Below, one piece after another: positions 9,610-27,482 of a DNA stretch of 64,000 nt. Source of the DNA: Lama guanicoe (Eukaryota); NCBI GenBank assembly GCA_013239625.1, contig MU053873.1:74524-138523 (forward strand), given 5' to 3'. Positions within the stretch are counted from its first letter, which is position 1. The number at the start of each line of letters is the position of its first letter. The notes beneath the pieces were generated by a model, which worked only from the letters and a program-made list of their open reading frames with translations, was not told where the DNA came from and did not search any database. A program made the position numbers and the translations under genes.

Positions 9610-12600
9610 TTACTTTGGGGTGACTGCCCCCAGCTGTTTCATCTTCTCTTCTGAGGCTTTGTCTGGAAGCAGGACCTCCACAGTGAAACTGACCTTCTTT
9701 GCATGAATGAAGCTGTAGGTGTTGTCAAACCGCAGGACATCTGAGAGGAGGCAAAAAAAACCCGGATATTCAGGCAGTTCTGACAAAGAACTTAGAGACA
9801 GCGATTTCTGTTGAGCAAGGCAGTGTAGTAGGTAATGAGGATGAAGGTGGCATAAGCAATGGTCCTTCACCTTCTGACACCTCGTCTAGCTGGGTTATAA
9901 GATGTTCATGGAGAGAAAAAAATATAAGAACACGCCAAGTGCCAGATGAGAGACCGAGAAAGTCATAGCTGTAACAGCTCAGAAGGAGGAGGCCCTATAG
10001 ACAGAAATCATGTGAAAGGCTTTTTAAAGGAGTCAGAGCTTGAACCCAGTCTTGAAGGCGGCTGAGTGTTGAATGAGTAACGGCAATAATTGTCATAATA
10101 ATAATAGTAATGGTAATAATGGCTATTTATGTGTTTCAGCACTGGGTTGGCAATCTATATATGTCACTCACAAGAACTCTTGAGTTCAGCATTGGTCCTA
10201 TTTTATATAAAAAGGAAGTCACTGTGTCACACAGTGAGGAAGGAGGGAACTGGGATTTCCCTCTGGTCTGCACTGCTGCCTGACTTGGGCCCTGGAAAGC
10301 CCAGCTCTGTTCGGTTTCTGACAAAAGGTAAAATAGGCAAACATTCTGAATCAGGAATTTATCCCACAGAAGGAGAAATGGACAAAGATGCTCAATGCAA
10401 TAATAATAACAGATGCAGGAAAACTCAAATGTTCAAAGGAGAGTTTCTTTAAAAGTTTTCATTGCAATCCATATGATGAAATAGTATTCTGTATCAAAAG
10501 AAAGACGTTAGCTTCATAAGAAGTGCCAGGGCAACTGTCAACAACCCAGCCTTAGGCCAAGAAAGCAAGTTGCAGAACAATTTGTAAATAGTTTCTAATT
10601 TTTTTGTTAATATATGTAAAAAAAATTTGGCCTTTTCTATCTACACTGACAAGTTTTACAATTTCAAAATTCCTTCAAATATACACTGAATGACAGATAT
10701 AATTCCTATGAATGTAAATGTGTGTGTACATATCCTGTATTTTATGGAAACATGTAATGCTTCTAAAGGGACGGCAAATATTTGGTAGGGTAACAGACAA
10801 GACCTGTTAGTGGTTTCCTCTGGGGAGAGAAAATGGGCATGCAGTTGCTAGAGAAGGCTTCCAAGCCTTGGCCAAGGAACAGACTGCTTTCAACCTAACC
10901 TTTGTGTTTTTGAGAAGTTGTTCCATGTCAGTCAGACCCCCCTTCAAGAGAACAGAGTGTGAAAACGAAAACAGTAGGCCTGCCCCTTCCCTATCCTGGT
11001 CTTCTCTCACTTTTCCCAGCCCAAGACCAAAAGCCAAAAACACTGTATATTTAATCCTAAGACTTAATCCTTCTCCTTTTCTGCCCTTGGATAAAATGCA
11101 TAGTTTAGACTGAGAGTAGACACACCACCCACCCTGTCTTCACGGTGTGAAGTGAGGAATAGTCATTGATTTTCTCTCTGTGCCAAGGTCTTTCAGGGCC
11201 AATGGTGCCTCTGGAAAGAGGGAAGCTTCCTGTCTGCCCTGGATGACGGAGCGTTAGCAACCAGTCAGTCCTGCTAGAGGAGAAGTCTGAGCTCCTTGGG
11301 CCAAGCAGCAGGACTGCGATGGCTCTGCCTAGCGGGACAGTCTGTCCTCAGAAACAAGGAAGGGGCTGTTCTGAGGCCCATGCCCGAGGGAAGTGGCGTT
11401 CATGAACTGTGGAGGTTCGTTCTGACACTAATCATGTACTCAGAGACTCGGGGAGCCCCCGGAGATCCTCCAGGGCTCCTTCACTTTTGTTGGGGAACTG
11501 ATCCTCTTGAGAATCTGATGAAAGCATACAATTTCAGATTCCATGGAGCCCACCTTAGACCCTCTGGGGTAGTGGTTCCCGGGGGGAAAGCTACCATTCT
11601 GAAGAGACAGGTGCTGGTGTAACTCTGCCTTCTCATTTATGTCTTGAGAAAATACATATATATATATACTAAATTAGCTTCCTTTTATTTCTTGTTTATA
11701 TTCCAAGTAGGAGAGTATACTGACTTCTTAGTTATGTATGTAGGTGGGTTTTAATACCTGTGAATTTCGTTTCAGAATAGTAGAGACATGAAACACTATT
11801 TACTATAAAAGGGAGGTGTTTGGTCTTTAAGATTTAGTTATCACTGCTCTGGAGAGTCACAGACCCCGGATTAACATCTCCTGCTCTAGCTCACTCCCCT
11901 CGTTTTAAGGAAGAGAGCAAAATCTAATTATGTGGAGATACTTGTTCACTCGTAGAGTTACTGGCAAAGCTAGACTCAGAAACCAGGTCTCCCAGGGCCC
12001 AGCTGGGCTGTTCAACCTTCACACAGCGCTTCAGCTCCGCTAGACCACACTGTGTGCTCTTGGCAGACAAATTCTTGGCAGACAAAGTCCAGATCTCTTT
12101 TTCTGAATCTTTTTCTTTCCTAGCAGGGTATTCTACACTTAGGACCTCGGGAAATATTAGTTGGGAGAAGAAAAAGTGAAATCACTTCAAACTTTGGTTC
12201 TCCTCCTCAGTAACTGGGTGTGGTTGGGCCAGGACCAGAGCGGCCCTGGAGGGTTAAGGCGATCTTGCCACTGGAGACTGGTGCAGAGTTTTAATGTCTC
12301 CACTGGGTGATTATGTTCCACTTTACAGGGGGGGCGCCTCATTCAAGGGCATCACCGCCCTCACCCCCCACAAGTGAGCCTGTAACCTAACTCTGGGTGC
12401 TTACTGGGCTCAGGTCTAACCTGAGTCATGGCCCAGAGGACAGCCGATCCCACCTCACTGTCTACACCTGGGAAGGGGACATGGATGCTGGGGTCTGCCT
12501 ATGCTCTTCCTGAGAATGGACAATAAGCAGCTCCCAGGCGAGGCCCCGCAGGCAGATACACATTCCATTTGGGAATGTACCTGAGAGGAACTAAAATTTG

Positions 12601-15600
12601 GCATTTGCAAACATAAGCCTGATTATGCTAAAAGGTTCACGGTCCTACATGGTACTACAGAGACGTAGCAGGCAGTGCTGGAAAATGGATTGGACTTGGC
12701 TACTGATTTTGGGTAAATTACTTCCCTGGTCTGAGACCCCACTCTGTCCTCTGTCCCAACTCTCATATAGACTATGGCCAGGAGCTCCTGCACCAGGACC
12801 CTAGGATTCTCTCGTGTCTTGTCTCTTGGTGTCTGTGGATGCTCCATTGGGGGAGCAATAACATCCCTTCTCTATAACTCAGCTTCCCCACCCATTAACA
12901 AAGAGAAAGTGGAGCTTCTGTGGATGACAGTGTCTGGGCTGTTGCTAAGCTTTGCTCTCGATGAAGCCCACAGTACACGCCTTCTCCCTCAGGACCTGGC
13001 AGCTTGCCAATGAGAATACTTCTCCTCCATGGGGAGCCAGACCACAGAGCATCTGTGAGGAGGGGGCGGTAGAGACTGAAGGTTGCCTGTGATGTGGGGG
13101 AGACCGCAGGATCTGAGGCTGGGGTGATGGTGTGGACAAGTACAGAGGCTGAGACATTTGTGGGGCTGGTTCAGACCTCCTGGTGGTGCTGCCGTAGAAA
13201 TGCGGGGTGGGGCTTCTCGCATCTCTAGCCCTTCTCCTCCAGGTCTTGCCCTAACAATGACCACGCTGGCCACAGTGTGCTGAGTGCTGTCTGGCAGGCA
13301 TTACGCTAAGTGCTGCACAGACCTTATCACGTTTCATCATCAGGTGTCCCTGTGAGGTAGAGAATTTGATCCCCATTGTAGCAATCAGGGAACTGAAGCT
13401 CAGGGAGGCTAAGTCACTTGCCTAAGGACTAGACAGTGGTCAAGTCCATCTCAGATCAGTGATTTTCCATGCCTGGCCCCTTGGCTTGGACAGAAAGGAA
13501 ACCGGAGATTTGATGAGGGTTTCGTGTGTGTGTATATGGTTTTTCTGCCTATAATGTAGTACAAGATCTTTGTAAAATTAACTGTATTTGCAGAACCAGT
13601 AGAAAAATACAAAAGCCCTCTATAAGCCTCCTAACACCCTAGAGAGAACCACCATTAGTGTCAGCATAGAGTCCCCAGAATTCTTTTCCCTTTCTTGTAA
13701 CCAAAGTATACTATATAAGCTATGTCTCATGCCTTATTTTTTTTATAGCATATTAGTTTATTCTCTTTAATGGGTATATTGTATATTGTATTCCATTGTA
13801 TGGATGGGCCACGATTTATTTAACAAGACCTTCTTAAGACCATTTAGCTTATTGCCAGCTTCCCAAGCTCCTGGGAACATCCTTGTACCTGTATCTTTGA
13901 GTCTTTTTATAAATATTTCTGTAGGATAAATTTCCAGAGATAGAATTGCTGAGTCAAAGGGACTTTTAATCGATACTGCAAAGCAGAGCAAGGTTAAACA
14001 GCTTTCCGAATGCCGACTTGCCAATCGTTACTCCTCACGGGTAAACTTGCTGTTCCTGTTCTGTGCCCCTTTTTTGGATCAATCTGGAGATGAGTGAAGC
14101 TCAGCAGAGTCAAGGCTGGGCTTGTCAGCACTCTGCCCACCTGTGATCCCGGTGCCTGCCCAGCCAGTTCTGCCTCTCTGCCATCTGGGGAAGGGGCATC
14201 CTCAAGAAATGTCTGATGACAGTCACAGAGCCAGCCAGAGCTGGACCGGAGAGCAGACATTCTGAACCCCTGTGACCACCCAGCCCTGTGACTCACCTAT
14301 GCCAGGGAGTATCGCTCAGCGTCCTGCCCTGCTCTTGACTAACTCGGCCACCTTGAGCTGGTCATCTCACCTGTCCAGACTGAGGTGTCCTCATCTATGT
14401 AAGGAGAGGGTGGGGCTGATGGAGCTCCAGCCACTTCTAGTTCTAAGAGTCTGAGAGCCTAAATCCGTGGACAAAGAGGGACCTCTCAGGCAGACTGCTA
14501 GGGCAGGGGCTTCAAGCCAAGACAGAGGTACTTACAGATGCCAGGATCACTGCAGGTGAGGGTCCCATCCTCAGGGACGAGGTGAGCATTGTACCTCTGG
14601 TTGGCCAGCACCTCTGTCATCTCCCCAGCCCGCTGCCGCTCCCCCATCTTGGTCTTCAGGAAAACACCAAAGCCAATGTCTGCACCATCAGATGAGAACT
14701 GCCACCTGTGTTGGGGGAGGGACAGAGACAAGCTGCTGCTCAGTCTGACGGGTCCCCATCCCCAGCCCGCTGCCGCTCCCCCATCTTGGTCTTCAGGAAA
14801 ATCCCGAAACCGATGTCCGAACCATCCGACATGAACTGCCACCTGCAGGGCACACCCACCCATTTAGACCTGATTCTGTCTGCGTGTGCCCTCTCTGGGG
14901 TCCTGCCAAGAGGGCTTCCCCTACCCCAGCCCATCTACCAGAACCTATGGCTAGAAGGATCAGGTCCTCTGGAAGGGTCCAGAACCCTACCTGAGGACGC
15001 AGCCGGGGAAGAGGATCTCATACTCCACTTGGTGGGAGGAGCCCCGGGAAATCTGCACACTGTGCTCATACTGCTGCTTCACCTGGTCTCGCACGTAATA
15101 CTTCTTGGGGATGTCGCCCCCGTAGTTGATCTGGAAGCAGAGCATGGAGTGAGCCGGATGTGCACTTGAGCCAGGTGTCCCTGGTCACCTCCAGCCCCTG
15201 GCAGCCCATACCTTGGATTTACACTTGGGGTTTCCATCAGGGTCAGTCATGGTGCCCCCATACTCCACGGGCAGCTGGTCAGGGCTGACATATTTCAGTA
15301 AAACCTCCTTCCAGTTCGCTGGCAGGAGAGGGAAGGAGGGAGAAGAAAGAATCACCACAGGCAGAATTTCATCACAGCCCTGGAGGGCTGCACAAAACAG
15401 GCAGGAAAAAACCCTGTCCGCCCCTGCACACACAACACAGGCATTGGGAGCACATGGTGTACACAAACTCTGCAAGGGGGCTGGAGAGGAGCCGCCACCC
15501 AGGGCTGCCCTGCTCTGGACCAGGAAGCCGGAGACCTGGGGTCCTGTCCCCACGGCCTCTGGCCAGCTGATCAACCTGAGGCAAATCACTTCATTCTGAG

Positions 15601-18600
15601 ACTAGTGCCTCCTGCCCTGCAAGGTTACGGTGGGAGTGAAGTCAACTAAGTGTGTGAAGAGGGTGTTGTAAACTGTAAAGTGCCCTACCTGTATGAGAGT
15701 GTATTCTCACTCCCAGGAAGGTGATACAAACACCTGAAGTGCAAGCAGAGGGGACAAAGAGAGGGAAGGACATTCCACACAGAGGGAACAGCACATGCGT
15801 GCGGCAAGCAAGAGGACCTGAACCAACATGGTCTGCCTGAGTTAGACTGAATGTGACGGCACGATCGTGTGTCTCGTCCCCCACTGTCACCCACTGTGCC
15901 CAGTCATGATTTAATGAACTCATCACTGTAGAGTGACCCCTTAAACAGGGTCCCTTGGCTTTACCCCAGCCACAATTTCACTTCTGCTTTCGTTTGGCCA
16001 CCAGTGATTTGGCTCATTTTTAAATAACCAAGCCCTTTCCTGGCTAGGAGGGTTTGACTCAAGGGCAACCAATGCTGGCATCCACTTCTGTGCCATTCCA
16101 GATTCCTAAACAAGTATCAGCCACGGACAGTATTTCGATGCTGGAAACCTCTCCATGCTGACACAGAGACCAGATATGGGCAGCAGCTCCAAGTCCCGGA
16201 GTACCAGCCGCCTCCTCTGTGGCAGGTGCTGCCTGGAAACCCACAGGGATGGGCCAGGGTCTCCCAGCCCTTAGGTTTCTGGGGACCTGCGACCAGGCAA
16301 CTGCAGGGACATCGTGCCTCTTGTCTCAGGGTGCTTGCATCTGTGCTAAGCTCCAGTGACCAGCCCAAGGTGAATTTCTTCCTTCCTCTGTTGAAGATCT
16401 GTACCTTCCAAGCCCAAGGCGGGTTTGGTTGAAAGGGTTTCAGGTGTGGGTGGGGGAACAGACTGAACCTCCTCCGCAGCTTGGCTGCCAGGAAACCAAA
16501 CGCGCTCATGCTCGTGGTGGGTGGCAGCCTCAGAAAAGCCAAAACTCATCAGGGCCTTTCGCTCAGATTTTGTGTGTCATCCCCCAGCTCAGCTGGAGGG
16601 TTGGAACAAGGCCAGGAGGACTCCTCCCATCTTATAGAGAGAGGACTGAGGCAACAAGGGGCAGAACTTGCTCCAGAGCCAGAAGAGGTGCCCAGAACCC
16701 TGGGCTCTCCAGACTGCCTTGTGCCACCCGCAGGGCTCAGCACATATCTGGAAAACTGCTACTTTCAGTGCGGTGCCTAAAGGTGAACACTCAGAAACCA
16801 GAATTTCCTGCCTCCGAGTTCAACTCCACGGGTGGCGCTAAGCCGTCCCGGAGCTGGTCGCAATCTGCCTTTCTAGGCTTTTCTCCCACCACTCCATGTC
16901 GTGCTCCAGCAAACCTCGAATGCTGTCTGTCCCTGGCTGGCTTGAGTCCCGTGTGTCGTCTTCATTGGCTCTCCCTTGTCCCCTGATGTTCTCCTGGCTT
17001 CCCTGACTAGCCAATCCCTGTCCACCTGCTTCCCCGCCAACCTTGCCAGTCACTTCCCCTTCTCCCTCGGGGGGTTCCTTTTTCTCTGACTGCCCTCGAG
17101 CCTGGATAGCCCCCAGGTCCAGCCTCTGTCCTGTGGGTCTTATCTCCTCCCAAGGGTTTAGTTGCTGCCTCTCTCTGGTAACTCCCAAATCTCCAGACTG
17201 GAGTTCGCTCCTAAGCTTCAGGCCCAGATCTCCCCAGCTCACAGTATCTGTGCATCCCACGGACCCCTCAAACCCAACTTCAGGCTTATCCTTCGTTCCC
17301 CAGTCGAACTAACTGCATCAGTGTGACAGCAATAGTCACCCATGCCAGATACCAGGGAGCCATTCGAGATTTCTCTTCCTCCCTTCCCACATCCAGTCAA
17401 CTGAGCTCTGCTCCTCCGCTTCCTACAGAAGTCTGAAATCCATCTCTCCTATCCCTACCGCCCCCGCCCTGGCTCAGGCTGGCAACACCTGGTGCGTGGA
17501 CTGTGGCCAAGGTGTGCAAACTGGTACCTGTCCTTCACAGTCTCACCAGTACTCCCCGGCTCAGAGCTCTTCTCTGGTTCCCGGGGGCCTGCAGAGTCAC
17601 ATCCCAGCCTCCCAGCACAGTGCCCTGGACTCTCTGCGACCTGGCTCCTGGCGCCCGGCTCCCTCTCCATGCCATCTCTTTCCTCGCCCTGCCATGCATG
17701 CCAGCTGCCCATGCCACAGGGTGTAAGGTCTTTGCTCGAGGCTCTTCCTTCTGCCCAGTAGCTTCTTGCCTGGCTTCTCTTGCTGCCCTGCTCATTCCAG
17801 ATCTCTCAGCACCGGGAGGCCTCGCCCCCTCCCCAGGTCAGGCCGGGTGAGTTCCCTGGCTCAATGTTCCCACGCGCTTTCCGAGTCCTCTCTTTGACAC
17901 TGGACATCTCACGCTGATACACGTCTGTTTGTGTCTCCCTCCCCGAGAGGCCACGAGCTCTGCAAGGGGCCCCGTCTTAACCATTGCTGCCTCGGCACCT
18001 GGTCCAGGGCCTGGCAGACAGCAGGTGCCCATCAAGTGAAGCCATGCATCCTTGCCCCCACCTGAAAGTGACCCCTGCTCCTGTGACCTCCATGGCACCT
18101 GCTCTGTGCCACGTCTGTGCCTTTTCTAGAGTCCTAGCTTTCTCTCTAAAGGTCTCTCTCCCATTTCACTGCAGCTTCTGGAGGGCAAGGACTGGTGTTT
18201 CATTCATCTTTGAATTTCTTCCAGAGGGTCTGAGAGAAAGAGTTCTTAGGAAAACAGGCAGGAAGTCCCCTGCTCAGCCCCAGCCTGCTCCTGGGTCCCA
18301 CCGCTACCAAACCAGCAAAGGGAGCCTCCATCCGGGCCGCTGTGGCTGCATCTCTACGGCCATCCCCAGCTGGGCCCCAGGAGTCTGGGCTACTCACCCC
18401 CCAGGACCATGATCTTCTTACGAGTGTCCTCACTCAGGAAGGGTTTGATGAGGTTATAGGCCACAGGAAACAGCTTGGGGGCTGGAACAGAGACCAGGCA
18501 ACGTGAGGCCAGGCCCAATGCCCACTCTGTCCCCAGCAGTGTCCTCCACAGCCCCCCGCGTCAGGCCACACGCTCCCTTTCCCATCTGCACAGTGGGGAT

Positions 18601-21600
18601 GGTCCTCCTACCTCACCGAGTTGGGTGGCTCGAAGGAGGTAACAAATAATGGAACTTTGTGGATATAAATCGGTCTGCGTACGTCATGGGTTGGTCTTCA
18701 GAACGTGTCCTCAGACCCACCGCTCTGCCTGTGGCTCACTCTATTTCACTCTCCTGACTGTCCCAGTAGTACTTTTGGCCCCTCTTTCCCATCTGGCTTC
18801 ATCACAGGTTGTTCCCGACTTACCTTTAACAATAAAAAGACGCTTCAGTGTTTCGGGATAATTTTCCTCAAACATGCAGAGGAACTGTGGAAACAAAATC
18901 ACTAAGTCCAGCGGGCTCGGATCTCTCGGCTTCCTCTGGCTTCCCCCGCCGCCCGGGCCTCCCGGCAGAGGGGCCCACCCCGTCTCTTCCCTCCCACCCC
19001 ACGCCCATGCTGGCCCTCACCTCTCCATAGGCCTCCACAGCCGGCTTCCAGAGATGCTTGAGGCCAAGCCCCTCACAGTCGTAAATCAGGGTGATGGTCT
19101 CTATCTTCTTCCCTGTCTGCAGGGGACAGAGGAGCAGAAAGTCACACCAGGCTGCTCCCCCCGACCACTGCAGAAGCCCACCCCGCTTCAGGGAAAATGC
19201 TGATTATACCTCGCACCCCTGTTGCAACCAGATGTGTGCAGCGCCGGCCCTAGGATTTTCCAAATCAAGATAATTACCCCAGGCCGGAATTGTGGCCTAG
19301 ACAAGTCACGCGTCCCGTCTAGATCTCCATGTTCTTATCCAGTAAACAACTGGGTGGACCGAGATTACATCTGAGGTTCCTTCTGTTCTGCAGTTTGACC
19401 TGGCGGCCTCCCTCTTCCTCTGCACCCCTGCAGGGCTCGGGCCGTGGGGCCTCGTGAGGCCCTCATCTCGTAGGCACAGATGCTCTCTGTCCAACCTGAG
19501 CCCTTAGGGTGCACTCCTGTCTAATGCTTCTCTGCGTCCCCAGCCCTATGGGGCCTTGGCACACAGTCAACGTGGACGACTGTTGAAACGTCCCCAAGCG
19601 TATCACATCATTTCACTGGATCTTTACAACTGCTGAAGAGGAGGGAAGGAGACAGGACCGTGGTGGCTCCGGCTTGCTCTTCAGTCTGTTTTCAGTCTAA
19701 GAGAATCAGTGTCCTCATCTTTGTTTGTATACAGGATTAGAGGGGCACAGACTGTGAGCTCATCGACACCAGTCCAGCACCCAAATACTTGTCCAAGGAG
19801 AGGGCGGTCAGGGGCAGAGATTCCACTGGTGCCCAGATACATAAGGAAATAACAATACGTAGTATGTTTCTTATGAAGCTAAATTTTATTCAATTTAAAG
19901 GACTGCCCTTTATTCTGAGTTTATGCCATCCCTGTAGTTTGGGGGGTTAATTATGGCAGTGATAGCTGGTAAGTTTTTTCTAAGTCCTCACTTGAAAAAA
20001 TTAAAATTTGGCCACATATGTCAGTCTCTAAAACTGAAATTTCACTGGCCTGGGGCTTAGATCCCTGTGTGACATCCCCGCTCCTGCTTGAATGCCTCCA
20101 CTGTGCTTCACTTCTTTTCGACTGTGCAGGTCCACCCACCTTTTCCGTCTGGCGGGCACACTCCCGCAGAAGCAGCTCGCAGTCCCGCATCTTGGTCCTG
20201 AGTAAGTCCTGTTTGGAGGCTGAGAGGAGCAGACCCTTGGCATCCAGCGGTCCAATGATGTCATACCAGATCGGGCAGCCGTCCAGGTCATAGCCACACA
20301 TACCCCCGGACAGATACTGTTGGACCACCTGGGCCCAGACAGACAGGAGACACCTGGTCAGCAGGCCCAGGATGGCCACACCTTCCCCATGTCCAGGGCC
20401 TTCTTTGGGGTCCATCCTCCCCTGGGTGCCTGTGGATACCCACTCTGGGAACTGTGAGGGCTCACTCAACATTATCAGACCTTTCCTCTGAGGGTTCCAG
20501 TCCCGCAGTCCCAGGACCCAGACTGTGGGTCTAACAGACCTAACGTAGGGATGGGCGGGATAGTCGGTCCTCACCTCTGGAGGTTGCCAGCTCTCGATGT
20601 TGTCAACGTCCTTTTGCTTTCGGAACTCCACATGCTACAGACACACAATCAGGGCTTTAGACAAGCAGGGCCAGGGTGGTGGGGGTGGTCCTTAATAGGC
20701 ATCGAGCAGTGAGCAACAGCACGAACGGACCGCCAGACCACAGGTAAGTCACGAGAAGGCAGCTGGCGGGAGCGGAAAAGAAGGAACTGCCCGTTCTCCA
20801 GGCCTCAGCAGAGCAGGTTATAGTTTTTGGCTGGCCCAGAACTATGAAAGCTCTGTGTTTCCAGGGAAGGGAATGCCCTTTGTCCCAGAGGATAAGGCAG
20901 TAGGGGTCAGGTAATACTCAGATTTTTTGTCACATAAGCCACAGGCTGTGATCAGGGTGTGAGGGGTGGATAAGTCCAAGCGCGGGGTGATTCTCGGGGG
21001 CAGGGATGAGGCAGCAGTGGGTTCGGATCTCACCTTCCGAAGCATGGCCTCGGACTTCTGCAGGTCAAAGCTTCTTGCTGTAACAGGGAAAGATGGCCAG
21101 GGTTAGGCCAGCAGCCTGGGTGCCAGGGACGGGGAGACGTCCCTGTTCCCGTGCTGGGGCCCCAGCTGACTCTTAGATCACCCCGCATGCAGAAGCTAAT
21201 GTGAGGGCGTTCACTGAGGGCTTCTGGAAAACCACAGCCCCGGGGCTTGCAGGGAGAGCACGTTCAGGGCAGGTCAGGGCAGCACCACAAGTTCAGGGTC
21301 AAAAAAGTTTGACCCAAGTGGATGCAGTCAGGTTAAGGGTCTTATCACCTCTCAGGGAAAGCGAACCCTGGATCCCCTTATCACAGAGCCTTCTCCTTAC
21401 ACAGTTAACCGCCTGCACAGTCTAACTTCCAGTCCTGCGAACTTGACCTGCAGTTCAAAGATGAACACAGTTCCCCCATAATCTGGGGCAGAGCTGGCAG
21501 AACATCCCAGCAGGAGGGAGGGAGGGATGATGAGACTTGAGTCAAACTTGCCAGGTCCTCCTCCAGGACTCACACATAACCCCCGGGAACACAGAGGGCC

Positions 21601-24600
21601 TTCCGCCTCCTCTGGTTCCTGGGAGGTTCCAGAACTAGAATTCACCTGGGCTAGCTCGATTTTATGCACAAACTGCAACACACTGTCCAGCTCAGGCTCA
21701 AACACAAAGATTTCCCTGTCCCCCAACGCCACCTGCTCCCAGACAATCTGAGTTGCCATTTGCACTCAGCCCTCGTTGTACTGAGCCAAGACCCTCTCAG
21801 GAGACACGCAGAGAGGAGAAGGGCTTCCTCAGCCACGTGACCACCTTGCCACTCTAAGTCCCCGCTGTTACACAGCCCACCACAGACATCATCAGCCATC
21901 CTTCACAGCTTGGTTTCAAGTCCAAGCAGACAACTTCCCTTTGGATGTTTTCCAGTTTGCCACCGCCTCTCGAGTGTGCGGTCCAGAGCACAGGTGTTGT
22001 CTACCCTTCAATTAAATGCAAGAACTTTTTTGGTAATGGGCCAGACCCTTAACTCGGGTGACACAGTCAACTGAAACCCCCAAATCCTTTCCACCTGTGC
22101 TGCTGCGTGAGCTCTCTCCCAGATGCCATGAGGTGGTTTTCTGGATCTACCCCTGTCAGATTCCACCTTGTTACAGTCAGCTGCATTTCATCCCTTAGAG
22201 ACTTCCTGAGATCCAGATTGTGACCAATTTTGCCATCAGACCTATAAACTGTCCCTCCCAGCTGTTCATCCTCTGTGGATCAGACACCCAGATCTGCTGA
22301 CAGCTCTGGAACCTGAGCCAGACAGGCTGCCCTCTGGACTGTCACCGGTCCCTTAATCACTGCTCTCCGGGAGCGGCCAAGCGCATTCCCTGACTCTGCT
22401 ATCATGAAAAGCAGCCCACTCTCCTGTGTCCAAAGGGTGAATTGAGATTTGACCAATGCCACGCCCACTGTGGGTGCTAGACACACGTTTGCAGAAATGA
22501 GCAGCCTTCTGTCCTGGGGAGTACCTTCTGACGGCCACACCTCATGTGCCATGGTGGCAGCAGGGGACAGCTTTCAGAGGAATATAATCTGGTTATGCAT
22601 CTCAGCCTTCCCACTTTCTCCCTGTTTGACCTTGGACAAGATACTGCACATCTCTGGTCAGATCATCTAATGAGCTAGAAACACTTGGAAGATGTAGGGC
22701 ACCATGCTATGATGATGCAGGAGCCCATCTGGACCTGAAAGCGGGAATCTTCCACAGGAGGGTCATCCCCAACTGTGAGGAGTCATCTTCCTAGGGAACA
22801 AGTGTGGTGGTGAACTGTGAGCCCCCTTATCTCAGGGAAGCTCTCCAGTTGACCCTTATCTGCTGGAGTCCAACATCCAGGGTTCTCCAGGGCCCTCCCT
22901 GAGTTACCACTGCCCCCGGCAGTACCAGCCTGATGCCTCCCAAGGCCTGCTGAGTCAGACTTCTCCAGGGCTCCTGCCACCCTGGTCAGGGGCAGCTCGA
23001 AGCATGACTTAGGGCACTGCCAGAGAAGCCGGCCTGAGAGCAGCTGTCCTGGGTTCTTATTTGATCGCTTTCTAGTCCTGGAAAAGGAGACTCAGTCCTG
23101 CTCTGCCCCGCTCACAGGGTTTCCTGCACCTCCTTGTCTTATTCTCCCATCTGACCCTCCTTGCTGAGCTGCCAAGACTCAAGCACGGTCAGGGGGAGGC
23201 AGCAGAGATTTGTGGGGCTGCTCTCAGGCCTGGGGACCACAGAAGACTGAGCCCATGTTGGGGAAGGAGGAAGGGAGGAACCCAGAGCTCACTCACACCT
23301 ACGTTAGAGGAAGACGTTGGGCATGTGCCTTGCAAATGTTTTCTTTAGAAAGAAAAGGTTTCTTAAAAAAAAAAAAAAAAGGAAAAAGAAAAAGGGAAAA
23401 AACCAAGCAAGCAAAGCAAGGCAACAAAAACCCTAATTGAAATTCACAGTAGAGCGTGACCAGGCCTGAGCTCCTGCCCAGGGAAATGTGAGGCACAAAT
23501 TAAGAGATACCTCCTCTGCTGGAAGAGGCAGGGCTTGGCTTTGGGGGGTAGTGGGGGCTTTCTGGAGAGGACGCTGGCCTGGGAAGCAGGGGCCCTGGGT
23601 TTCTGCCTGATTCTGCTTTGCATTAGCTGTGTGCCCTCAGGTAAGTGCCCTCCCCTGTCTGAGCCTCAGTTTTCTCATCTGGCAAATGAGGATGACCACA
23701 CTCTTCCACATCCCTGCAAAGAGAGGGGTTATCCCAGGACTGGGGAGTTGGTGGTGCCCGATAAACCAACTGCCAGGGCCCCGGGCTGGCCTTCTCTTAG
23801 ATAAGAGAGAGCTGCAATGTTATTCAGTTCAGCAGCTCTCTGAAACCACACTTCCCCCCCAACAGTAGCCGAGGAGTTTACCTGATCATCTTGCGGCTGG
23901 CCCTTTAATGCAGCACAGTCTTCCCACTCTCCCCACCCACCCGCTTCTAGCCAAAATATCCTCCAGCTCTGGACAGACTCCACAGCCGCCCCCTCGCTGC
24001 CCCTCCACCCTCTCTGAGTGGGCAGAAGTGTGTGTGGGGGGGTCACAGCTTTTTGGGAGGAAAAGGGCAAGTGGCACCTCCAGAGGCACACAGGGCCCCA
24101 CGTGGCTCTCCTAGTAGCATCTGACCTGGGGCATCTGCTGGCAGCCTCTCAAGACCCTGACAGCGCTACTCAGTTCCTGGACAGAAAAGGAAAATACATC
24201 ACCTCACCTGTCCCAAGACTCCGAGGGTATGTATGTGTGTGTCTGAGTCTGTAAACAGTCAGCCATGATTTGTACTTTAGCATTTGGGACTATGATTCTA
24301 TATCATGATTTAACCTCTGCTAATCTAACACAGAGAAGGAATCTTCTCTATTATTTCTATGTCTGGCAATAAAGTGTCCAGAAAGAAAAAAAAAAAGTAT
24401 GTCACAAGAACTGGAGAGGGTGGCACGTGACTTGAATCCCAGGAGAGAAGAGAGAAAAGATAGGGAAGATTTCAGGAGTTGGGGCATGGGGTTGAGTTTG
24501 ACCCTGATGCCAGTACAGATATGTACACTTCATCACCATGGGCACAGCTCTGTCATGTCCCATCTCGCCATAGACAGGGCACCCTGTCTCATCCTGCTCT

Positions 24601-27482
24601 CCCAGAGAGGAGCCTAAGACAGATGTTCACTCCTGGCCCAGGTACCAGAGGCAGGCCAGGGCAGAGCTGGAATAGAAGTCTGGGCTCTGAAGCCAGATGG
24701 TGGCTTGAGAGGAGTTTCGCTACCTAGGTCGGGCCGAACCCCCGGCTCCCCGTGTTCTCCAGGCACTCTGTGCCTCCTTCAAGCAGCCTGAACTGCTGGC
24801 AGCAGGCGGCCTGCCCTCCCAACAGGCCACAGAGGGGCCCTGCCTCTCCCAGGTGCCAAGACTCTTGCTTCTAGGCTTGGCTCTGCCTCCAACTTCCCAC
24901 AAGCCTGGAGCCTTTCTCGGCTTTTCCTCAAGCCATGCCCCGCGTCCATTAGCAGAGTGGATTTATCGAGTGGATGGAAAGGGCACTGGCTGGGAGTCAG
25001 CTGAGCAGGGCTCTAGTCCTTCTCTGCCGGCAGTGCAACACTGTGTGACTTGGGGCAAGTTACTTTACCTCTCTGAGCCTCAGTATTGTTATCTATCCTA
25101 CAGGAGGGTTGAGATTGTATAATGGCCAAGAACTCTTTTGGTTCTACAGGTTGAATACTCCAGGTTCTGAGACTGCCAGGGGAAGGGTTTCCAGAGGGTA
25201 CCATTCTGTTACCCAGAACAGGCGAGCAGTCCCTGCCCCAGAACAAGCCTCCCACAGCCCCTCTTCCCTTACCTCGGAGCCAGCGCAGGAGAAAATAGTC
25301 ATCTGGATTCGGCAGGGTCGGCAGCACATCCTGGACATTCTCCCGAAACTGTAGGGAGAGGCAGTGGGGTGAGTGGCAGGTCCCACCCTGACCACCCTCT
25401 GCCCGGGACTCTCATAGGAGCCTTTGCCAGACCCCGGCTCAACATGGGTCAACTCTGCCAACACTGGCTGAGCCCCTGCGCTGCACAGGACCCTCTGTCT
25501 GTCGTGCTGCGGGGTGCTGGGTAGCAGGAGGAAGTGGGAAGGAAGTAAGACACTGCCCCTGCCTGGCTGTGCGCACTGACACACTCTGGAGTGATGGGTG
25601 GACAGATAGTCTGGTATGTGCTACAGTAAAATCTTCAGGTTTTTAGTCAGTTTACCAAGCATTCCTCGTGTGCCCAGCACTGAACTTGGCACTTCTTCAC
25701 TCCTCACTCAGAGTCTCTAGGGGTATGACTGCTCCCATTTTACAGGTGAAGGAATCAGAGCTCAGAGAGGCTAAGTAACATGCCCAAAGTCAAACAGCTA
25801 GTAAGCAGCAGAGCTGGGATGCAAACCTGGGTCTGTCCCAGGCCACAGCATGCACTTCCCACGTGGTATTCTGCCCCTTTAGTAATGGAATGGTGGGCAC
25901 TGTGCCCGGGGACCAGAGGGAAGGAAGAGCTTGATTCTGGCTGGGGCCAGGAAGAGGGTGGTCTCATATGACTTTATATTAAAAAATGGCATTTGACTGG
26001 GTTTGAAGGGCCCTAAAGGCAGCAGGGAAGGGGAGGAGGCAGTCCAAGTGGAGGGAACAGCTCCAGCCAGAAGCCCTGAAGGGGGAAGGTGCAAGGAGTG
26101 CCAAACAAGAGGTGGACAGTGACCCCAAGGATGGCCACGCCCACCTCCAACTGCTGGCTACCCAGTAGGTGAGCGCACCCCAACGTGTCCTCCCCAAGCC
26201 TCCTGCTCCCAGCCACTCACCTTTCCCTAGTCACTGACCCTGCGGGGCAGCCTCAGACAGGACCAATGGGAACCTGCCACCTCTGCCCCTTGCCTAGGTC
26301 AGCCAGGGACTCAAATCATCCAATCTCCCAAACAGCTCCCAGACCCCCAGGGAAACTGGCGTGAAGCCACCCCTCACCAAGGACCCTAGCCAGCCCCCGG
26401 TTTCTAGTTTAATCACCACCTAATCCCTTCTCTGCCTGACTTCCCCTGCAGGTCAGCAGTAAAATCTGAAACCTCCCTATCCAGCCTCCCTGGGATGGGG
26501 AGGCCCAGCCTGGGGCAAAGCCTTCACAGGGCTGGTGCCTCCGTCCCACTGCATAGCAGGAGACATCTGCCCCCACCCCTTCCCAGCTGTGGAGCCTCCA
26601 AACCTTGAGACTGGACTCAGTTGGCTCCAGCTCAGAGAACAGCAACCTCTCCTCTCCCCAAGGGCATCAGAGGAGATCCAGGTGGCAGGGAGAGGGCTGG
26701 GCTCTGGAACTATTGCCCCCTCCTCTGCCCAGGCGACAAGGCAAAGCCAGGCTTACATCCTTGCCTTCTGGAGAGCAGCATCAGCCCAAGTCCCCAGGCA
26801 GGGAGGGGCCTGGGTTGCAGGACAGGGGAAGACTGGTCTCAGCTCAAACTAACCCCAACCCATCGAGTCACCCGCAGGATCCCAGGCTTCGCACTTGAAG
26901 GTACCCCTTCAACATCATCTGGCCCAGTCTCCTCAATTCATTTCCTCAAGGAGCAAACGGAGAAGGACCGGTTTTGCCCAAGGTCGCAGGGAGCCATCCA
27001 AGTCTCCCAAGGAGCCCTCTGGGCCCTCCCCATCGCGCCCCTGCAAGAGGAAAACCTCCCGGAAATGGGAGGAAAACTGGGGCCCTGCTCCTGCCCCTGC
27101 CCCTGCCCCCAGGGCCCGGCTGAGAGCCCGGGGGATGAACGTCGCTTTTGTGCCCTCAGCTGCCTCCGTGGGCTTCCAAGCAACCGCTTCCTCCCAGGTG
27201 GCAGCGCCAAGGGCTCGCTCGGGACTGGGGCCGGGGCGGCCAAACTTCCCCGGGGCCCCCTCGGCGGCGGAGGGAGGGAGGCAGGGAGGGAGGGGGTGGC
27301 GGCGGGGAGCCCGGGGCCGCCGGGTGCTGCTGCCCCCGCCGCCCCCCACCCAGCCCCTTCCCCGCTCGCTGCCGCGGGAGGACTAGGGCCACCGCCCGGG
27401 GCGGGGCCGGGCCGGCGTGCGGGCTCACCTTGGCCAGTGCCTCCTTCTGCTTAGGGCTCAGATCGCCGACTCTGCCGCTCAT
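9610..27482 (-). CDS. SEC14L2: SEC14-like lipid binding 2 (supernatant protein factor / tocopherol-associated protein), CRAL-TRIO + GOLD, 12 coding exons, 403 aa
   Basis: Exons 27429-27482 (54), 25273-25348 (76), 21034-21077 (44), 20575-20634 (60), 20140-20328 (189), 19021-19116 (96), 18824-18884 (61), 18398-18481 (84), 15212-15318 (107), 14991-15130 (140), 14536-14705 (170), 9610-9740 (131) = 1212 nt. All GT-AG. N-term [29 protein letters not shown]-term [20 protein letters not shown] is SEC14L2-type. Confidence 0.96.
14759..14842 (-). pseudogene. Truncated duplicate of the 5' 84 nt of SEC14L2 exon 11 (pseudo-exon with own AG acceptor; in-frame TGA at 14740-14742)
   Basis: Aligns without gaps to 14622-14705 (offset 137 nt) with 11 mismatches; encodes [27 protein letters not shown] then DGDPSD*. 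Confidence 0.9.
25680..25860 (-). mobile_element. MIR SINE (representative; other MIR-like cores near 5630, 5870, 6660, 6910, 13300, 14290, 23570, 25000, 27750, 28260, 50330, 53600, 59560)
   Basis: MIR core text CCCATTTTACAGGTGAAGGAATCAGAGCTCAGAGAGGCTAAGTAACATGCCCAAAGTCA. Confidence 0.65.

Follow-up and report, generated by a model that had tools for sequence, protein, structure and literature searches.

A SEC14L3-like tract inside exon 11 of SEC14L2 in a Lama guanicoe genome assembly: indirect evidence leans towards mis-assembly

Three described systems come close to the arrangement reported here: false duplications and unmerged overlaps in assemblies, templated insertions at end-joined breaks, and interlocus gene conversion. 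For false duplications Ko et al. 2022 (PMC9516828) name as marks a low or halved read depth, discordant read pairs and gaps that separate the two copies. The locus under study, exon 11 of SEC14L2 in Lama guanicoe, resembles the false duplications and unmerged overlaps characterized in that paper in that the duplicate lies on one scaffold at the join of two pieces, the break sits at a repeat and the gene model is altered. Compared with the cases set out there it differs in two respects. The second copy is a paralog-derived extension and not the same locus or the other haplotype, the two copies differing at 11 of 84 nt, and instead of an N gap only one orphan base separates them.

For the second system, passages of PMC7407515 document both SDSA and the templated insertions that occur where breaks are closed by end joining. 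Our locus shares with the templated insertions of these passages an insert that is identical to its donor, one homologous junction, and a second junction with a 1-nt filler beside the 5-nt motif GGGGA. Unlike the insertions covered there, which come from experimental systems or are confirmed variants, the present one is known from a single draft assembly alone. The third system, interlocus gene conversion, has in common with our locus a short near-identical tract and a 3' flank at ordinary paralog divergence (74% identity), but in gene conversion the recipient sequence is replaced. Here 84 nt of the recipient are kept and a donor tract is added, giving a net gain of 137 nt; furthermore, the donor intron has no counterpart in the recipient. 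In the literature searched we found no account of gene conversion between SEC14L2 and SEC14L3, the term being absent among the matches listed.

The analysed stretch, referred to as the window, comprises 64 kb and corresponds to positions 74524-138523 of its scaffold (C1858). Using tblastn with SEC14L2 proteins we located SEC14L2 on the minus strand of the window, where 12 exon matches span positions 9613-27482. The exons encode the CRAL-TRIO and GOLD domains and are nearer to SEC14L2 than to SEC14L3 or SEC14L4. The affected exon is number 11 of 12. Its best match among solved structures is human SEC14L2 (E = 2.2e-31), followed by SEC14L3 (2.3e-29) and SEC14L4 (1.4e-24). In tblastn alignments the exon residues of the window equal those of Vicugna pacos SEC14L2 except for the three chimeric residues described below. 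The features of the region are as follows (window positions, in the order of transcription):

14991-15133, minus strand: SEC14L2 exon 10 (residues about 258-304), ending in ...CCTCAG followed by gtaggg; placed by tblastn with camelid and other SEC14L2 proteins
14843-14990, minus strand: native SEC14L2 intron 10, 148 nt, with its acceptor AG at 14843-14844 and a weak pyrimidine tract (45% C/T at -25 to -4)
14759-14842, minus strand: copy A, the native SEC14L2-type start of exon 11, 84 nt, ending in ...GCTGGGGA; no difference from SEC14L3 over the 3' 43 nt (14759-14801)
14758, minus strand: orphan T at the join, which fits neither source
14607-14757, minus strand: SEC14L3-like tract, 151 nt, of which 150 match SEC14L3 in the blastn alignment (L002, positions 1501-1651)
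14706-14757, minus strand: intron part of this tract, 52 nt, the tail of SEC14L3 intron 10, rich in pyrimidines and ending in ...AACACAG
14740-14742, minus strand: in-frame TGA encountered upon splicing to the native acceptor, with the exon end lying 204 nt downstream
14733, minus strand: sole mismatch to the SEC14L3 donor, G here and A in L002, 28 nt upstream of the imported acceptor; it adds an extra AG
14607-14705, minus strand: exon part of the tract, the first 99 nt of SEC14L3 exon 11
14607-14664, minus strand: exact block shared by SEC14L2 and SEC14L3, 58 nt, a two-locus repeat that leaves the exact 3' end of the imported tract ambiguous
14536-14705, minus strand: copy B, the complete exon 11, 170 nt; its 5' 41 nt are SEC14L3-type and positions 14536-14606 SEC14L2-type
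14534-14535, minus strand: donor gt of copy B (gtaagt); the acceptor of copy B is SEC14L3-type, with 77% C/T at -25 to -4

A repeat search in the 1.4-kb region around the exon returned a single direct repeat, 14622-14708 against 14759-14845, with a length of 87 nt, 87% identity and an offset of 137 nt without any gap. A match of this length and identity within 1.4 kb is far beyond chance, and the whole 64-kb window contains only three short-range repeat families. Within the exon, copies A and B differ at 11 of 84 bases. All differences fall within the first 41 bases (exon positions 10, 11, 12, 15, 22, 24, 30, 33, 36, 39 and 40), and the last 43 are identical. From copy A to copy B three codons change their residue, ATG to TCA (M to S), TCG to GCA (S to A) and ATT to GTT (I to V), which in the numbering of the human chain, aligned from W305 on, are M308S, S312A and I318V. 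Five further codons carry synonymous third-position changes (TCG to TCT, ATC to ATT, GGT to GGC, TTC to TTT and GGG to GGT). Repeat search and base comparison thus agree with the preliminary description of the exon, which had reported a 137-nt offset duplication without indels, the same count and placement of differences, five synonymous changes and the same three substitutions, all of which hold in the true frame. Its account of a broken upstream copy at 14759-14842, a spacer of 53 nt at 14706-14758 and a complete exon at 14536-14705 ending in ...TLTCSDPGI is likewise accurate.

To locate the source of the second copy we searched positions 14536-14900 against the same 2.05-Gb assembly. Besides the window itself, two places matched, one on the opposite strand at C1858:65557-65762 (93%) and one at C1858:17230-17386 (85%). 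The latter belongs to a SEC14L4-like paralog and its match is confined to the exon part, at only 82% identity. The former lies in a gene at 57591-66721 of the scaffold that best fits SEC14L3 protein, for example with 92% identity over residues 362-400 as opposed to 74% with SEC14L2. SEC14L3 and SEC14L2 are convergent on this scaffold, with their exons 11 located 23.5 kb apart. In the base-level blastn alignment positions 14757-14607 match SEC14L3 at 150 of 151 bases, and this includes 52 nt of intron. From 14606 on, identity to SEC14L3 drops to 57 of 77 bases (74%), which is the ordinary level between the two paralogs, their other exon alignments showing 70-84% identity. The longest exact run in each of these other alignments is 9-23 nt, against 58 nt in exon 11. 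The spacer bears no relation to the native intron-10 tail in the alignment.

On base identity, SEC14L3 is the donor of the tract including its non-coding leader, as had been proposed beforehand and is now borne out by the same-genome search. The paralog signatures on which that proposal was based, including a SEC14L2-type 3' half, also agree with human solved structures: SEC14L2 shows the signature WQFMSDG..GFGIF and reads WQFMSDGADVGFGIF, and exon 11 of SEC14L3 ends in ...LTCSEAGV. Judged by these signatures and by the alignment, copy A belongs to the SEC14L2 type, and copy B begins as SEC14L3-type and ends as SEC14L2-type. The 27 residues encoded by copy A are identical in the SEC14L2 proteins of Camelus ferus, C. 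dromedarius and V. pacos. Resolution within an identical block had been suggested for the 3' side of the tract. Such a block does exist, but with 58 nt, reaching to 14607, it is wider than the 43 nt originally given.

The other end of the tract, the join at 14758/14759, is of a different kind. In the native exon a G is expected at the position of the orphan T (the GAG codon for E; camelid proteins read ...RAGEMTEV), and in the SEC14L3 intron the donor has C. Before GGGGACCCG the SEC14L3 intron reads ...CCCCTC, where GCTGGGGA and a T would have been expected. The motif GGGGA flanks the join on either side, and the orphan T separates the two copies. Since both copies of the motif are retained, this is not a junction that keeps a single-copy microhomology, and the donor lacks the predicted microhomology before the tract. 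Entry through a short microhomology, the route put forward in the preliminary description, and with it a microhomology-mediated template switch, does not fit this structure. Non-allelic gene conversion, its second suggestion, does not agree with the join either: conversion replaces sequence without a change in length, whereas here the native 84 nt are retained upstream and the net insertion amounts to 137 nt.

Taken together, the indirect evidence leans towards mis-assembly, which had been named as the main alternative, over a biological event. We put the probability that the 137 extra bases are an assembly artefact and absent from the animal's genome at about 70%. Such an artefact could have arisen at the exact 58-nt block shared by SEC14L2 and SEC14L3 in exon 11, where a short-read assembler would break its contigs. 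The left piece, carrying native intron 10 and the start of the exon, would stop 43 bases into the block. The right piece would have been extended leftward through the block with SEC14L3 reads, which would have carried it on into 52 bases of SEC14L3 intron. Instead of being merged, the overlapping pieces would then have been abutted, with a one-base gap between them filled by a T. We infer both this behaviour of the assembler and a true exon that is the uninterrupted native one. In this exon the 5' part of copy A would run directly into GATGACAGAGG...GGCCAACC, and ...TTCATGTCGG... of copy A would continue through the shared block straight into ...GAGGTGCTGGCCAACC.

Several observations on the join and on the scaffold point in this direction. 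Copy A breaks off inside the 58-nt exact block, after 43 nt of it, and the break thus sits at a repeat of the kind that ends contigs, since assemblers interrupt their contigs at repeats that exceed the word size. The orphan T, which agrees with neither source, points the same way. The scaffold is gapped and of short-read type; the 338.5 kb scanned contain 7 runs of N, each 47-9397 nt long. Within these 338.5 kb we detected three local direct repeats: an old 71-nt pair, the exon 11 case and a 511-nt duplicate. The copies of the 511-nt duplicate are perfect and exactly one orphan base lies between them. The first copy ends in a dispersed repeat, to which at least 38 other places in the genome match in part, and the second begins right after a (GT)n run. 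Both a (GT)n run and a dispersed repeat are typical contig break sites, which indicates that this assembly abuts overlapping pieces with one filler base; the 511-nt duplicate almost certainly consists of two overlapping pieces joined in this manner. The join in SEC14L2 shares its signature of a repeat-ended piece, one orphan base and an overlapping piece. The same signature is thus found elsewhere on the scaffold at a place where a biological origin is unlikely.

The length of the tract is a further point. The SEC14L3-identical stretch is exactly 151 nt long, a common Illumina read length, and beyond its end a SEC14L3 read would no longer fit SEC14L2. As this agreement was noticed post hoc, we give it little weight as a sign of an artefact.

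Other features speak against mis-assembly. The SEC14L3 piece is used twice, SEC14L3 itself being intact at its own locus. A pure de Bruijn assembler would not use a piece twice, so that an artefact presupposes a read-based gap filler. The G/A mismatch at 14733 would need a heterozygous site or a read error. Furthermore, a single filler base is often also a product of end joining, which counts against an artefact. We also considered whether the start of the imported tract (-52 of the SEC14L3 intron) might be a de Bruijn edge between heterozygous sites; this was rejected, the candidate sites at -53 and -28 lying closer together than a plausible k.

To see whether the arrangement recurs, we compared the exon with other camelids and with sequence databases. 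All three camelid species retrieved (C. ferus, C. dromedarius and V. pacos) have an uninterrupted native exon 11 in their annotated SEC14L2. This native camelid exon consists of copy A continued by the final 29 residues of copy B, and it is also present in a 97-residue genomic ORF on an ENA metagenome contig (P0155). The other exons of the window agree with V. pacos at both residues that separate V. pacos from Camelus (Q18 and V67). The plain exon is therefore present, in a separate data set, in the same species or in one closely related to it. The protein evidence from other assemblies is at the same time compatible with a private or species-specific insertion.

The chimeric exon was not found among protein representatives (439 matches, best identity 95%), where the search covered representatives of 90% clusters and a three-residue chimera could hide inside a cluster. 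An ORF crossing the junction gave 92 matches, none of which spans the junction, the k=31 contigs searched breaking at the repeat. The junction pattern had 0 matches in metagenome contigs, a result that is uninformative on the animal's DNA.

We also determined which share of 162 words sampled from the region is present in sequencing runs. Fourteen DNA runs from four organisms contain at least half of these words; their shares are 0.86-0.94, and five runs from two organisms tie at the top share of 0.94. Of 1471 words, 56 are attributable to the junction, the orphan T and the G at 14733 together, which corresponds to about 6 of the 162 sampled. A plateau at 0.94 is expected if such assembly-specific words are missing, but could equally be produced by about three private variants. 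Among six RNA runs, four show shares of 0.22-0.30 and two of 0.05; both splice forms hold about the same words, and these shares do not separate the two acceptors.

The alternative that fares best is a real germline insertion, very young and private or species-specific, in which a break in SEC14L2 was repaired by copying SEC14L3. We regard it as unlikely, but as deserving serious consideration. In this scenario a double-strand break would have occurred in SEC14L2 exon 11 right after ...GCTGGGGA. The downstream end would have invaded the convergent SEC14L3, 23.5 kb away, by means of the 58-nt block, and about 93-151 nt would have been copied leftward into the tail of SEC14L3 intron 10 before dissociation. 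End joining to the upstream end with a 1-nt filler would have completed the repair. The product would be a templated insertion joined through homology at one end and without homology at the other, and two 3' splice sites would compete. Coupling of homologous and non-homologous repair was reportedly described by Richardson and Jasin in 2000.

The observed structure fits this path exactly, with a perfect-homology junction on one side and on the other an orphan-T junction beside the GGGGA of both partners. The donor is nearby on the same scaffold, the component processes of such a repair are established as outlined at the outset, and a single difference in 151 nt indicates that the event, if real, is young. 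However, all points in favour of an artefact count against it: the break sits at the exact inter-paralog repeat, and the scaffold also carries the 511-nt duplicate, which shows the one-base signature too and is almost certainly an unmerged overlap. The chimera and its junction are absent from the protein and run data reached. A homology of 58 nt is short for homologous invasion in mammals. Finally, a frameshift in a conserved gene would be selected against unless splicing bypasses it.

Whether splicing could do so depends on the acceptor. Taken at face value, use of the native acceptor would yield a 307-nt exon with a frameshift leading into the TGA at 14740-14742, and the transcript would join exon 10 to ...GTGGCAGTTCATG. 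Under the 50-55-nt rule for targets of nonsense-mediated decay this transcript would be such a target. With the imported acceptor, exon 10 would be joined to ...GTGGCAGTTCTCA, the frame would be kept and three residues changed. The imported acceptor has 77% C/T at -25 to -4 compared with 45% for the native one, which makes its in-frame use plausible and adds some weight to a repair origin. The G at 14733 (-28) removes an A that, as a matter of speculation, might serve as the SEC14L3 branch point.

An old local tandem duplication that diverged in place, or a pair of alternative or mutually exclusive exon 11 starts, is suggested by two copies in tandem that each have an AG acceptor, but it is extremely improbable and was rejected on the SEC14L3 donor match: copy B with its 52-nt leader equals SEC14L3 at 150 of 151 bases whereas 11 of the first 41 nt of copy A differ from copy B, the intron of a paralog cannot be regenerated by divergence in place, the spacer is unlike the native intron-10 tail, and only one exon is seen in three camelid proteins and in one genomic ORF. 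The preliminary view that the repeat is not a decayed local tandem duplication was correct in this regard.

If the insertion is real, it represents a clean natural case of coupled homologous and end-joining repair between paralogs, seen before decay. It would also be a natural experiment on acceptor competition and, through use of the imported acceptor, would yield a naturally occurring SEC14L2/SEC14L3 chimera of the GOLD domain. As such it would be of interest to specialists in DNA repair and splicing, without opening a new field. If, as we favour, the extra bases are an assembly artefact, the join with one orphan base provides a cheap mark for other such errors in this assembly. Gene models built on this assembly would receive either a false SEC14L2 frameshift or a false GOLD domain with three SEC14L3-like residues, and either might be mistaken for loss of the gene, for gene conversion or for an adaptive change in a camelid.

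Outside the window, the scaffold that carries it (C1858) contains a perfect tandem duplicate of 511 nt at C1858:244622-245644 (L022:6099-7121), in which a single orphan A separates the two copies. Copy 1 breaks off within a dispersed repeat that has at least 38 partial matches genome-wide, and directly before the start of copy 2 there is a (GT)n run. The duplicate very probably represents two overlapping contigs that were abutted with a one-base fill between them. Satellite-like sequence is found at the scaffold start, at C1858:1-2400 (L004:1-2400) and 13000-13800 (L005:3000-3800). Four N gaps here have 400-nt flanks that align with one another in many registers at 74–90% identity, a pattern indicative of a tandem array.

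The SEC14L4-like gene and SEC14L3 are located on opposite strands of the scaffold:

C1858:16043-27423 (L005-L006), minus strand, SEC14L4-like gene
C1858:47922-48063, N gap between the two genes
C1858:57591-66721 (L009-L010), plus strand, SEC14L3

In the human locus SEC14L4 and SEC14L3 share the same orientation. Because an N gap separates the two genes, both a scaffold orientation error and a real inversion are possible.

When protein representatives were searched with the chimeric SEC14L2 exon 11, the best E-value was obtained for a protein of the fish Prochilodus magdalenae annotated as “hypothetical, partial” (P0001; E = 4.1e-43, 64% identity). With 743 residues it is about twice as long as is usual in the family; one possibility is that two SEC14-like units in tandem were fused in this model, so that the exon is matched twice.

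The SEC14L2 isoforms X1 and X3 of C. ferus carry a tail beyond exon 11 (...[18 protein letters not shown]...). Just downstream of the exon, in intron 11 (window 13997-14460), an open frame ([19 protein letters not shown]) matches this tail with differences and frame breaks. The tail is annotated in Camelus as an alternative 3’ exon, which is perhaps not open in the window.

Within exon 11 itself, SEC14L2 and SEC14L3 are identical over a block of 58 nt (window 14607-14664, also 14759-14801), from which SEC14L4 differs at 3 positions. In each of the remaining exon alignments between SEC14L2 and SEC14L3 the longest exact run comprises 9–23 nt, at 70–84% identity. An older conversion tract is one possible explanation of the 58-nt block, and constraint at the nucleotide level is another.
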